Shown: one piece after another, positions 8,468-39,997 of the stretch
Layout: each line of letters begins with the position of its first letter
Numbering within the stretch: position 1 is the first letter of the stretch
Assembly (NCBI RefSeq): GCF_988243305.1
Contig: NZ_OZ547136.1
Direction: 5' to 3' (one strand)
Length of the DNA: 64,000 nt
Program-made: the position numbers and the translations under genes
The notes under the pieces: model-generated
What the model saw: only the letters and a program-made list of their open reading frames with translations
Told to the model about the DNA's origin: nothing
Databases searched by the model: none

Positions 8468-8543
8468 TCCTCTGTAGTTCAGTCGGTAGAACGGCGGACT
8501 GTTAATCCGTATGTCACTGGTTCGAGTCCAGTCAGAGGAGCCA
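8468..8543 (+). tRNA. asnT: tRNA-Asn (anticodon GTT); insertion site of the HPI
   Basis: 76-nt TCCTCTGTAGTTCAGTCGGTAGAACGGCGGACTGTTAATCC...GGAGCCA; identical to three further copies in this window. Confidence 0.95.
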
Positions 8544-8923
8544 ATTTTCTGTTTTCTTGCATCCTTGCGAATCTTTATCTGATGTTGATTCAACAGGTTA
8601 GTGTGAAAACTCTTCTCGGTGCATTTTGATTTTACCCTACGCATCGGGAAAAATTGGTGGTCAAATCTGGGGTCAGGTTAGTTCGATAATGGAGTGACCC
8701 CCATATATCCCTTACCGACGCAAAAATCCGCACCCTCAAGCCTTCTGATAAACCCTTTAAAGTCTCCGATTCTCACGGTCTGTATCTGCGGGTCAAGCCG
8801 GGTGGCTCCCGCCACTGGTATCTCAAATACCGTATTAGCGGTAAAGAATCCCGCATTGCGCTGGGTGCCTATCCAGCCATCTCCCTGTCTGATGCGCGAC
8901 AGCAACGTGAAGGTATCCGTAAA

Positions 8924-9967
8924 ATGCTGGCGCTGAATATCAACCCGGTACAGCAGCGGGCTGCTGTACGTGGCTCACGAACACCGGAGAAAGTTTTTAA
9001 AAACGTGGCGCTGGCGTGGCATAAAAGTAACAGGAAATGGTCGCAGAACACCGCCGACCGTCTGCTTGCCAGCCTGAACAATCACATCTTTCCGGTCATC
9101 GGGAACCTACCTGTATCAGAACTTAAACCCCGTCATTTCATTGACCTGCAGAAAGGGATCGAGGAAAAAGGTCTGCTGGAGGTTGCGTCCCGCACACGGC
9201 AGCACCTGAGTAACATAATACGCCATGCGGTCCATCAGGAGTTAATCGATACGAACCCTGCAGCAAACCTTGGCGGCGTGACCACACCTCCTGTCAGACG
9301 GCACTATCCTGCCCTGCCGCTGGAGCGGCTGCCTGAACTGCTTGAACGTATTGGGGCATATCATCAGGGCCGTGAACTGACCCGGCATGCCGTTCTGCTG
9401 ATGCTGCATGTGTTCATTCGCTCCAGTGAACTGCGTTTCGCCCGCTGGTCAGAGATTGATTTCACAAACCGAGTCTGGACGATACCCGCGACGCGAGAAC
9501 CCATTATTGGCGTGCATTATTCCGGCCGCGGGGCAAAAATGCGAATGCCGCATATCGTCCCCCTCTCAGAACAGTCCATCGCCATTCTGAAACAGATTAA
9601 GGATATCACCGGTAATAATGAACTGATCTTCCCCGGCGACCATAACCCGTATAAGCCAATGTGTGAAAACACGGTCAATAAGGCACTGCGGGTGATGGGT
9701 TACGACACGAAAAAGGATATCTGCGGTCACGGCTTCCGGGCAATGGCATGCAGTGCGCTGATGGAATCGGGTTTATGGGCAAAGGACGCAGTAGAACGCC
9801 AGATGAGTCATCAGGAGCGCAATACCGTGCGCATGGCTTATATTCATAAGGCAGAGCACCTGGAAGCCCGCAAAGCGATGATGCAGTGGTGGTCGGATTA
9901 TCTGGAAGCATGCCGAGAATCTTATGCACCGCCTTATACAATTGGTAAAAATAAGTTTATCCCATAG
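8924..9967 (+). CDS. int: P4-like tyrosine integrase of the HPI, possibly start-defective
   Basis: ATG-initiated ORF of 347 aa; the same frame continues upstream to 8690 encoding an integrase N-terminal arm domain (SLTDAKIRTLKPSDKPF...GSRHWYLKYRISGKESRIALGAYP) but with ATA where the start would be expected. Confidence 0.75.
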   Translation: MLALNINPVQQRAAVRGSRTPEKVFKNVALAWHKSNRKWSQNTADRLLASLNNHIFPVIGNLPVSELKPRHFIDLQKGIEEKGLLEVASRTRQHLSNIIRHAVHQELIDTNPAANLGGVTTPPVRRHYPALPLERLPELLERIGAYHQGRELTRHAVLLMLHVFIRSSELRFARWSEIDFTNRVWTIPATREPIIGVHYSGRGAKMRMPHIVPLSEQSIAILKQIKDITGNNELIFPGDHNPYKPMCENTVNKALRVMGYDTKKDICGHGFRAMACSALMESGLWAKDAVERQMSHQERNTVRMAYIHKAEHLEARKAMMQWWSDYLEACRESYAPPYTIGKNKFIP

Positions 9968-9999
9968 TATACTAACGAATCCCACACTCTGGCAAATTA

Positions 10000-10030
10000 C
10001 CACCACCTCCACAGGAGGTGGTTCTATATA
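10000..10030. terminator. hairpin between convergent int and ybtS
   Basis: Inverted repeat ccaccacctcc aca ggaggtggt in the int-ybtS intergenic region. Confidence 0.4.
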
Positions 10031-10160
10031 GACTTTTATCAACTTCATGACGAAAAACACCTATTTTATCCCAAAAGAAGACAATAGAGTCACAGAGGAA
10101 TCAAAGAGCGACTCAATTGTCTTTGGACAGTCTGGTTGTGAGGTTAGAAAACAGTTACTC

Positions 10161-36916: not shown

Positions 36917-36968
36917 TCACCATTGTCGGTATTTTTGGCGTTTCGCCGTCTTACAGGGACTCACAACA

Positions 36969-38990
36969 ATGAAAATGACACGGCTTTATCCTCTGGCCTT
37001 GGGGGGATTATTGCTCCCCGCCATTGCTAATGCCCAGACTTCACAGCAAGACGAAAGCACGCTGGTGGTTACCGCCAGTAAACAATCTTCCCGCTCGGCA
37101 TCAGCCAACAACGTCTCGTCTACTGTTGTCAGCGCGCCGGAATTAAGCGACGCCGGCGTCACCGCCAGCGACAAACTCCCCAGAGTCTTGCCCGGGCTCA
37201 ATATTGAAAATAGCGGCAACATGCTTTTTTCGACGATCTCGCTACGCGGCGTCTCTTCAGCGCAGGACTTCTATAACCCCGCCGTCACCCTGTATGTCGA
37301 TGGCGTCCCTCAGCTTTCCACCAACACCATCCAGGCGCTTACCGATGTGCAAAGCGTGGAGTTGCTGCGAGGCCCACAGGGAACGTTATATGGCAAAAGC
37401 GCTCAGGGCGGGATCATCAACATCGTCACCCAGCAGCCGGACAGCACGCCGCGCGGCTATATTGAAGGCGGCGTCAGTAGCCGCGACAGTTATCGAAGTA
37501 AGTTCAACCTGAGCGGCCCCATTCAGGATGGCCTGCTGTACGGCAGCGTCACCCTGTTACGCCAGGTTGATGACGGCGACATGATTAACCCCGCGACGGG
37601 AAGCGATGACTTAGGCGGCACCCGCGCCAGCATAGGGAATGTGAAACTGCGTCTGGCGCCGGACGATCAGCCCTGGGAAATGGGCTTTGCCGCCTCACGC
37701 GAATGTACCCGCGCCACCCAGGACGCCTATGTGGGATGGAATGATATTAAGGGCCGTAAGCTGTCGATCAGCGATGGTTCACCAGACCCGTACATGCGGC
37801 GCTGCACTGACAGCCAGACCCTGAGTGGGAAATACACCACCGATGACTGGGTTTTCAACCTGATCAGCGCCTGGCAGCAGCAGCATTATTCGCGCACCTT
37901 CCCTTCCGGTTCGTTAATCGTCAATATGCCTCAGCGCTGGAATCAGGATGTGCAGGAGCTGCGCGCCGCAACCCTGGGCGATGCGCGTACCGTTGATATG
38001 GTGTTTGGGCTGTACCGGCAGAACACCCGCGAGAAGTTAAATTCAGCCTACGACATGCCGACAATGCCTTATTTAAGCAGTACCGGCTATACCACCGCTG
38101 AAACGCTGGCCGCATACAGTGACCTGACCTGGCATTTAACCGATCGTTTTGATATCGGCGGCGGCGTGCGCTTCTCGCATGATAAATCCAGTACACAATA
38201 TCACGGCAGCATGCTCGGCAACCCGTTTGGCGACCAGGGTAAGAGCAATGACGATCAGGTGCTCGGGCAGCTATCCGCAGGCTATATGCTGACCGATGAC
38301 TGGAGAGTGTATACCCGTGTAGCCCAGGGATATAAACCTTCCGGGTACAACATCGTGCCTACTGCGGGTCTTGATGCCAAACCGTTCGTCGCCGAGAAAT
38401 CCATCAACTATGAACTTGGCACCCGCTACGAAACCGCTGACGTCACGCTGCAAGCCGCGACGTTTTATACCCACACCAAAGACATGCAGCTTTACTCTGG
38501 CCCGGTCGAGATGCAGACATTAAGCAATGCGGGTAAAGCCGACGCCACCGGCGTTGAGCTTGAAGCGAAGTGGCGGTTTGCGCCAGGCTGGTCATGGGAT
38601 ATCAATGGCAACGTGATCCGTTCCGAATTCACCAATGACAGTGAGTTGTATCACGGTAACCGGGTGCCGTTCGTACCACGTTATGGCGCGGGAAGCAGCG
38701 TGAACGGCGTGATTGATACGCGCTATGGCGCACTGATGCCCCGACTGGCGGTTAATCTGGTCGGGCCGCATTATTTCGATGGCGACAACCAGTTGCGGCA
38801 AGGCACCTATGCCACCCTGGACAGCAGCCTGGGCTGGCAGGCGACTGAACGGATGAACATTTCCGTCTATGTCGATAACCTGTTCGACCGTCGTTACCGT
38901 ACCTATGGCTACATGAACGGCAGCAGCGCCGTCGCGCAGGTCAATATGGGTCGCACCGTCGGTATCAATACGCGAATTGATTTCTTCTGA
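36969..38990 (+). CDS. fyuA: TonB-dependent outer-membrane receptor for ferric yersiniabactin / pesticin
   Basis: 673-aa ORF with signal peptide, TonB-box-like ESTLVVTAS and C-terminal aromatic residue (RIDFF). Confidence 0.92.
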   Translation: MKMTRLYPLALGGLLLPAIANAQTSQQDESTLVVTASKQSSRSASANNVSSTVVSAPELSDAGVTASDKLPRVLPGLNIENSGNMLFSTISLRGVSSAQDFYNPAVTLYVDGVPQLSTNTIQALTDVQSVELLRGPQGTLYGKSAQGGIINIVTQQPDSTPRGYIEGGVSSRDSYRSKFNLSGPIQDGLLYGSVTLLRQVDDGDMINPATGSDDLGGTRASIGNVKLRLAPDDQPWEMGFAASRECTRATQDAYVGWNDIKGRKLSISDGSPDPYMRRCTDSQTLSGKYTTDDWVFNLISAWQQQHYSRTFPSGSLIVNMPQRWNQDVQELRAATLGDARTVDMVFGLYRQNTREKLNSAYDMPTMPYLSSTGYTTAETLAAYSDLTWHLTDRFDIGGGVRFSHDKSSTQYHGSMLGNPFGDQGKSNDDQVLGQLSAGYMLTDDWRVYTRVAQGYKPSGYNIVPTAGLDAKPFVAEKSINYELGTRYETADVTLQAATFYTHTKDMQLYSGPVEMQTLSNAGKADATGVELEAKWRFAPGWSWDINGNVIRSEFTNDSELYHGNRVPFVPRYGAGSSVNGVIDTRYGALMPRLAVNLVGPHYFDGDNQLRQGTYATLDSSLGWQATERMNISVYVDNLFDRRYRTYGYMNGSSAVAQVNMGRTVGINTRIDFF

Positions 38991-38997
38991 TTATTGT

Positions 38998-39028
38998 AAA
39001 AGGGATACCGAAAAGGTATCCCTTTTAC
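38998..39028 (+). terminator. rho-independent terminator downstream of fyuA
   Basis: Stem aaagggatacc / ggtatcccttt with gaaaa loop, followed by tt. Confidence 0.6.
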
Positions 39029-39997
39029 ACCACTAGTTAAAACCAGTAACTCAGCAGAGTCGCAAAAAATATTAATCCATAGTGATTATTTAAACAATGA
39101 AATTGCGATTAGGATAAATAGATTTAACTTTCTCGTTCCTTTCTCTCCTTATACTAAAGAAATAATCATATCAAAATAAAAATTCACAACAGTGCAACAT
39201 TAAAAAATACAACCAACAAACAATCCTATATACAAGGCACATCTCCAGAATATAAAAGCACAGACAAACAACCTAAAAAAAACAACCCCATACATATAAA
39301 TTATTTTATAGGTAAAATAGATTATATATTCTCATAGCTACCACAAACTATACTAGCCTGAACTATATTTATTCTGCTGCAATCAATGCATACATAACAC
39401 AAATATCACTCAGGTACACTACTCAAACCACGCTGGGATTTTTCCTCAAGTTATAATCATCACCCCGAAAATCATTCGGCATTTACTCATTAAATAGTCA
39501 CCCCATAGGCCTGTACATGTTTACTCAGAAATATACATCCTTTTCTCTGTCATAAACCCTCTAATTAATCATAAATAAATACTTGTGACACCAATCTTTT
39601 TCCTTAACGGAACGAATTGTTGTGTAGAAGGAGATAATATTATGTCAAAAAAAATATCAGCCATTGCTTATAACTCATTATATGTCAACATGGGTCACTA
39701 TAACGGAAGCAGTTGAGATCACTACCAAAGCCATAAAACAAAAAAATTACTCCTAGCGATATTTATCGTCATGCCTTGAGTGGCAACATCCTACTATCGG
39801 TCTATTTCCAGTCTCCTGTGATACTTAAGAAGATACAAACTTTTAATGGAAAAATAAAATTCAGGCAGTTTGTGGGAGACCTACTTGATAAACTATGCAT
39901 GCTTGACAGGGACGGTTTTATTTATGGTCAAAATTTAAGACTCTGTACAGAAGCTAGATATATTTGTCCTGTGCAACAAATTATAGATACCCCCCTG

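Follow-up and report, generated by a model that had tools for sequence, protein, structure and literature searches.

Among the HPI-positive ECOR strains of Escherichia coli, all except ECOR31 carry the yersiniabactin high-pathogenicity island (HPI) at asnT with a unique deletion at the fyuA border; the deletion removes a direct repeat and part of the backbone, and the island, being fixed, spreads on large fragments by homologous recombination (Schubert et al. 2009, PMC2606025). The E. coli HPI of the ECOR31 type is of the integrative and conjugative element (ICE) type and comparable to ICEKp (PMC2606025), the mobility of which requires xis, int, 17-bp repeats at both ends, virB1, mobB and oriT (Lam et al. 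2018, PMC6202445). The HPI of the Yersinia pseudotuberculosis complex keeps int and xis for integration and excision (PMC6202445). The island considered here lies in a 64,000-nucleotide stretch of E. coli chromosome (the window; contig NZ_OZ547136.1 of assembly GCF_988243305.1), which covers the hchA-to-cobU region at 44 min on the K-12 map; it differs from the Y. pseudotuberculosis-complex HPI in having neither xis nor the right attachment site, attR. We take it that the Y. pseudotuberculosis-complex HPI also keeps both direct repeats.

The element in the window is almost certainly the common-type E. coli HPI, with a complete yersiniabactin system and locked in place by a deletion on the fyuA side. 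With respect to the described common-type island (PAI IV536-like; PMC2606025), it has the same asnT site, the same gene order and the same junction, and nothing of substance is different, this copy having the ATA allele of int discussed below. Over its first 24.5 kb (8468-33000), the interval is ~100% identical to the corresponding DNA of several clinical and environmental HPI-carrying E. coli, e.g., JE86-ST05, which is also the outcome of the nucleotide check against E. coli HPI references that had been proposed; at least 80% of this segment is covered in 2232 of 5426 complete E. coli genomes. Nothing in the sequence contradicts the identification as HPI. A preliminary description of the window, made from its sequence, had claimed a complete yersiniabactin HPI at asnT, well described and not novel. 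Genes, domains and the near-total identity to HPI-carrying E. coli bear out the element and its site, and it is indeed a known, fixed and fully described virulence island (PMC2606025). The word complete stands for the siderophore core; as a mobile island the element is truncated, with no attR, excisionase gene (xis), type IV secretion system (T4SS) or mobilization (mob) genes, and with 587 bp of chromosome deleted.

Outside the island, the window is colinear with K-12 MG1655 at ~97-98% identity (blastn). K-12 homology ends at 8544, one base beyond the asnT end given by ARAGORN (8543) and the last base of the 17-bp att core, and restarts at 39997 within yeeJ (blastn and tblastn). The interval first proposed for the island, 8468-39995, thus agrees with the true insert to about two bases. 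That the island abuts the 3' end of tRNA-Asn was likewise correct, with asnT at 8468-8543, and so was the statement that it is richer in G+C than its flanks (0.585 over 8545-38990 versus 0.44 on the left and 0.47 on the right). The marks of a pathogenicity island at tRNA-Asn are all found: the 3' end of an asn tRNA gene is adjoined, a P4-like integrase gene is next to it, and the G+C content is distinct. The coordinates of the features are collected in Table 1.

Yersiniabactin genes and their regulation

All twelve canonical genes named in the preliminary description are present, according to the list of open reading frames (ORFs) and to the PGAP annotation of identical DNA; the same sources give the eleven ybt/fyuA genes as uninterrupted and in canonical order and orientation. 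Gene starts follow PGAP, as annotated in E. coli ECONIH4, which has an identical stretch. NCBIfam has no specific hidden Markov models for most Ybt proteins: its cutoffs were passed only by YbtS, YbtU and FyuA, no match to YbtT was obtained in the NCBIfam profile search, and the proteins besides those three were identified via DNA identity to annotated genomes. The same three proteins were compared with their Yersinia counterparts and are nearly identical to them (FyuA to Y. pestis 4epa, YbtS to Y. enterocolitica Irp9 2fn0, and YbtU to 4gmf). The HPIs of Y. pestis, Y. pseudotuberculosis and Y. enterocolitica have the same siderophore system, with the same architectures of HMWP1 and HMWP2. The start of ybtU overlaps the stop of irp1 by 4 nt. 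Antisense ORFs within irp1, ybtP and other genes (e.g., 29383-30198 and 14747-15376) were regarded as spurious, as is usual in coding DNA rich in G+C, and set aside.

Concerning the two large synthetases, re-translation of irp2 and irp1 gave no internal stops, in agreement with the uninterrupted products of 2035 and 3163 aa claimed for them, and the nonribosomal peptide synthetase (NRPS) and polyketide synthase (PKS) motifs said to be recognisable are borne out by Pfam, with matches to adenylation (A), carrier, ketosynthase (KS), acyltransferase (AT), methyltransferase (MT), ketoreductase (KR), cyclization (Cy) and thioesterase (TE) domains. Both proteins have the domain order expected of them. 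In HMWP2, with an aryl carrier protein (ArCP) and two peptidyl carrier proteins (PCP), it is ArCP-Cy1-A(embedded MT-like insert)-PCP1-Cy2-PCP2, with Pfam matches at residues 22-82 (PP-binding), 150-535 (Condensation/Cy), 575-920 (AMP-binding), ~1181-1280 (methyltransferase-like insert), 1411-1474 (PP-binding), 1529-1905 (Cy) and 1951-2013 (PP-binding). In HMWP1, which includes an acyl carrier protein (ACP), it is KS-AT-MT-KR-ACP-Cy3-MT-PCP3-TE, with Pfam matches at 27-515 (KS), 551-846 (AT), 1093-1194 (MT), 1559-1729 (KR), 1823-1888 (ACP), 1948-2266 (Cy), 2593-2693 (MT), 2832-2894 (PCP) and 2915-3139 (TE). The carrier serines were found in HMWP2 (S52, S1439 and S1977) and in HMWP1 (S1853 and S2858), as were the catalytic motifs: the cysteine of KS (TACSS), the serines of AT (GHSVG) and TE (GWSYG), and the DxxxxD of the Cy domains.

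The irp2 and fyuA promoters have in common an inverted repeat, ACCCGAAAC...GTTTCGGGT, followed in each by a Fur-box-like site. Another such site lies between the divergently transcribed ybtP and ybtA, and only two others in the 64 kb match the consensus this closely. The Fur-like boxes of the island have 4-6 mismatches to the consensus.

The steps of biosynthesis proposed for this locus follow the established biochemistry of Yersinia and E. coli, the assignment being made here from sequence only. YbtS would convert chorismate to salicylate, which YbtE would load on the aryl carrier of HMWP2. HMWP2 would add and cyclise two cysteines, YbtU would reduce one thiazoline, and HMWP1 would add a dimethylated malonyl unit and a third cysteine and then release the product, while YbtT would edit mis-primed carrier domains. 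The ferric complex would be imported by FyuA and YbtPQ, with YbtX as a putative accessory transporter of the major facilitator superfamily (MFS). YbtA would activate, and Fur repress, the promoters with the shared inverted repeat and the Fur-like boxes. The island encodes no phosphopantetheinyl transferase, an activity that would be supplied from elsewhere in the genome, by EntD or ClbA; in E. coli one or the other acts in this role (PMC3708854).

It could be argued that the island is a decaying, non-functional relic, in which the genes are open yet silent or yield no siderophore, e.g., through regulatory or missense lesions. Inactivated ybt genes do exist in other lineages, such as E. coli Z1323CEC0013, with frameshifts annotated in irp2, irp1, ybtU and ybtE, and K. 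pneumoniae ST67 and ST3, which carry ybt lesions (PMC6202445); moreover, the mobility part of the present island has clearly decayed. This interpretation is nevertheless very improbable. Eleven ybt/fyuA genes remain uninterrupted over 28.8 kb, which is unlikely without selection or very recent acquisition, the catalytic residues and the predicted promoter elements are present, and the DNA is ~100% identical to that of many clinical isolates.

Right border and loss of mobility

The traits of the common, fixed HPI are found together in this window: the asnT site, the lack of attR, the missing backbone, the breakpoint at 39994-39997 and the junction shared with other genomes. A pattern search located four copies of the 17-bp att core in the 64-kb window, each inside an asn tRNA gene (asnT, asnW, asnU and asnV), and no attR. 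The final ~1 kb of the interval, on the right of fyuA (38991-39994), is a non-coding remnant and not island genes; 2258 of 5426 complete E. coli genomes have it, close to the number with the island. The 587 bp missing from the K-12 backbone are the spacer between asnT and yeeJ plus the initial 218 nt of yeeJ (codons 1 to ~73). The fyuA-to-yeeJ junction is shared by 2228 of the 5426 complete genomes (~41%), with at least 80% of the query covered.

What lies beyond the breakpoint in a mobile relative was seen by comparison with ICEKp, represented by the K. pneumoniae chromosome CP125156.1, which is filed in PLSDB as a plasmid. ICEKp likewise has a P4-like int at a tRNA-Asn, and it shares the ybt locus and the AT-rich stretch of ~1 kb that follows fyuA; its identity is 99.5% to window positions 18694-39288 and 98.6% to 39276-39994. 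Past the point equivalent to 39994, ICEKp goes on with an AlpA-family xis gene ~0.7 kb further on, DUF2857 and TraR genes, a VirB T4SS and mobC, and it also has cargo genes and the right 17-bp repeat. All these are missing from the window: 20 kb of the ICEKp right arm had no blastn match anywhere in its 64 kb, and tblastn with the ICEKp Xis gave nothing there below E = 1. With respect to the requirements for ICEKp mobility, this copy keeps only int and one repeat, and neither the pair of 17-bp repeats at both ends nor the xis and VirB-T4SS/oriT/mob module to the right of fyuA, as found in a self-mobile HPI/ICE, is seen.

A smaller difference was observed in the spacer, where ICEKp has 208 bp (20589-20796 of its locus) that are absent from the window at ~39276-39288. 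The two blast pieces have a 13-base overlap there, suggestive of a deletion between short repeats. In a few E. coli the spacer matches in two pieces with ~220 extra bases, perhaps the stretch found in ICEKp.

The proposed history of the locus is that a yersiniabactin integrative element entered at the 3' end of asnT, of which the left ~31.5 kb would remain, and that a deletion on the fyuA side would then have fixed the island in place. The island is predicted to be unable to excise or transfer by itself, because attR, the excisionase, the T4SS and the mob module are lost and the start of int is ATA. Its spread would be only vertical, or passive, on large chromosomal fragments by homologous recombination. 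The proposal of a fully complete HPI/ICE, still mobile and able to leave asnT and transfer, for which the int frame open over all three domains, the attL intact at the tRNA 3' end and the presence of all canonical HPI genes could be adduced, has practically no chance of being right, being effectively refuted by the missing attR (no copy in the window outside the tRNA genes), besides which the right arm gives way at 39994 to a yeeJ without its 5' end, the window has none of the xis, VirB T4SS and mobC genes of the ICE-type relative, int starts with ATA, and the junction has been described as immobilising (PMC2606025).

The int gene, P4-like, was called intact in the preliminary description. This holds for the frame, which is open and contains three Pfam domains, Arm-DNA-bind_3 (3-87), Phage_int_M (98-191) and the catalytic Phage_integrase (224-384), and not for the start, where ATG is mutated to ATA. 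The ATA codon is at 8705, preceded by GGAG at 8691-8694, and no ATG occurs in frame before 8924 (codon 74). The mechanical ORF list gives only a 347-aa ORF for int because of this ATA, and a product starting at 8924 would be without most of the arm-binding domain. Among other HPIs, the start is ATG in O26 RM8426 and in AR_0089 and ATA, as here, in CUVET18-565; some other copies have a frameshifted int. The exact 59-mer across the ATA occurs in at least 847 of 2010 matching genomes (at least 42%), S88 included, and ATA is therefore a common allele and not a sequencing error. With no attR, the start codon is moot for excision. It is conceivable, although rather unlikely, that the ATG-to-ATA change, selected or by hitch-hiking, silenced int as part of the domestication of the island once attR had been lost; the opposite reading is that the 420-codon int frame, with nothing left for it to excise, is open in thousands of genomes because Int would have gained another role.

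Some points limit the reading of the island as a fixed, common-type HPI with a complete yersiniabactin system. The inverted repeat of the irp2 and fyuA promoters is presumably the YbtA-binding repeat of Yersinia, an identity that we assume. The comparison with Yersinia is one of proteins, not of HPI DNA, and the yersiniabactin function itself is predicted from the nucleotide sequence. As to int, PGAP annotates it as a normal coding sequence (CDS) despite the ATA, and the effect that ATA would have on the integrase level is extrapolated from reporter data, in which initiation from AUA is ~0.02-3% of that from AUG (bioRxiv 10.1101/063800).

Table 1. Features of the island and its borders (window coordinates; a point marks features listed on neither strand).
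Feature	Position	Strand	Evidence
asnT, tRNA-Asn(GTT), integration site	8468-8543	+	ARAGORN; Rfam tRNA 72.6 bits; synteny with K-12 serU-mtfA-asnT
17-bp att core CCAGTCAGAGGAGCCAA, asnT 3' end, = attL	8528-8544	+	Pattern search; K-12 homology end 8544
int, P4-like tyrosine integrase, 420 open codons, start ATA	8705-9967	+	Translation; PGAP CDS at same position in ECONIH4; Pfam
ybtS (irp9), salicylate synthase	10161-11465	-	NCBIfam TIGR03494 682 bits, cutoff 325; PDB 2fn0 Irp9 971 bits, full length
ybtX, MFS transporter	11493-12773	-	Open ORF; PGAP name; RhtX/FptX-family similarity below family cutoff
ybtQ, ABC transporter half (permease + ATPase)	12766-14568	-	Open ORF; PGAP name; ABC exporter-type family matches
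ybtP, ABC transporter half (permease + ATPase)	14555-16267	-	Open ORF; PGAP name; ABC family matches
Fur-box-like site, divergent ybtP/ybtA promoter region (16268-16523)	16434-16452	.	4 mismatches to 19-bp Fur consensus
ybtA, AraC-type regulator, 319 aa	16524-17483	+	Open ORF; PGAP name; weak C-terminal AraC-type family matches
irp2 promoter elements: inverted repeat 17566-17599, then Fur-box-like site 17611-17629 (4 mismatches)	17566-17629	+	
irp2 (HMWP2), NRPS, 2035 aa	17674-23781	+	Uninterrupted ORF; Pfam domains; motifs
irp1 (HMWP1), PKS/NRPS, 3163 aa	23869-33360	+	Uninterrupted ORF; Pfam domains; motifs
ybtU (irp3), thiazolinyl imide reductase	33357-34457	+	NCBIfam TIGR01761 534 bits, cutoff 189; PDB 4gmf YbtU 829 bits, full length
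ybtT, type II (editing) thioesterase, 267 aa	34454-35257	+	Open ORF; PGAP name in related genomes
ybtE, salicyl-AMP ligase, 525 aa	35261-36838	+	Open ORF; aryl-acid adenylating family 591 bits; PGAP name
fyuA promoter elements: same inverted repeat 36849-36882, weaker Fur-box-like site 36895-36913	36849-36913	+	
fyuA (psn), TonB-dependent ferric-yersiniabactin and pesticin receptor	36969-38990	+	NCBIfam TIGR01783 497 bits, cutoff 224; PDB 4epa pesticin receptor 1481 bits, full length
Terminator-like hairpin after fyuA, AAAAGGGATACC-GAAAA-GGTATCCCTTTT	38998-39026	+	Read from sequence
AT-rich non-coding remnant of island right arm, G+C 0.327	38991-39994	.	Absent from K-12; matches ICEKp stretch after fyuA
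Deletion junction: ICE-type sequence to yeeJ at ~nt 219 (~codon 74)	39994-39997	.	Three-way alignment window/ICEKp/K-12; blastn, tblastn vs K-12
yeeJ (inverse autotransporter adhesin) remnant, 5' end lost, internal deletions	39997-42396	+	blastn, tblastn vs K-12 yeeJ

Neighbouring sequences and related loci

The yeeJ sequence that follows the junction is itself much reduced with respect to the K-12 gene, whose translated CDS has 2340 aa. Besides the lost 5' end, ~3.7 kb are missing internally at 40319/40321, repeats have mediated a further loss near 40765-40794, and other sequence takes the place of the 3' end at 42396-42461; in identical genomes PGAP annotates the remnant as two pseudogenes, frameshifted and partial. 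The loss of the 5' 218 nt and the remnant state are attributable to the scar of island insertion and loss of its right border. Further on, a glycosyltransferase family 9 gene on the minus strand (42612-43664) is the counterpart of yeeL, an open ORF here and annotated as intact in related genomes; in K-12 it is a pseudogene.

The weakest match of the junction search, in E. coli Z1323CEC0013, was considered as a possible ICE-type island and rejected, as it corresponds to an IS5-associated deletion. That genome has an IS5-family insertion sequence (IS) element 44 bp downstream of fyuA and has lost the spacer, yeeJ and a portion of yeeL. The frameshifts annotated there in four ybt genes could be real decay or assembly errors.

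Other fyuA contexts were also seen. When species-representative genomes were scanned with FyuA, no Yersinia locus was obtained, and the matches were limited to five that are diverged, in K. michiganensis, K. oxytoca, K. indica, Raoultella and S. enterica diarizonae. These loci were useless as guides to the truncation: in those other genera, the hairpin at the same place is the only feature that the DNA 3' of fyuA shares with the window. In PLSDB, a query from the fyuA end of the island matched 166 plasmids of Salmonella, most of them conjugative, as well as several of Klebsiella; the two short Klebsiella plasmid matches listed cover only 38700 to ~39133, an indication that ybt loci on plasmids differ in what lies to their right.

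Regarding the tRNA genes, the window contains serU, asnT, asnW, asnU and asnV (ARAGORN and Rfam). The four tRNA-Asn genes are identical and lie within 44 kb, and the window keeps the K-12 order (48365-52672) and has no second island. In JE86-ST05, whose HPI is ~100% identical, the asnW-asnV segment (yeeO-cbl-nac) is inverted, and the last asn copy is occupied by a second island that carries a P4-like integrase of its own. On the left side of the window, yodB (cytochrome b561) is absent: at 6718-6939, ~995 bp of K-12 zinT-serU sequence are replaced by ~222 bp without K-12 match. ECONIH4 is likewise without an annotated yodB between zinT and serU.

Toward the right end of the window there is a group II intron (59915-61528), with an ltrA reverse transcriptase/maturase ORF (59915-61438) and, after it, a match to Rfam Intron_gpII (61442-61528, 64.9 bits). 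This intron is flanked in the closest genome by two IS3-family transposase fragments. The surroundings, at 56.5-62 kb, consist of IS debris; the corresponding site of K-12 is occupied by IS5 and the beginning of the CP4-44 prophage.

Meaning for the carrier strain

The island marks the strain as a yersiniabactin carrier; the literature links this siderophore to extraintestinal virulence, metal (Cu) binding and lipocalin-2 evasion (PMC3708854, PMC2606025, PMC6202445). The insertion scar accounts for the neighbouring adhesin gene yeeJ being a remnant, and no new biology is involved. For annotation purposes, the value of the analysis is in the distinction between a siderophore core that is complete and a mobility part that is gone, from which it follows that the island is to be regarded as a stable chromosomal trait and not as a transferable element.

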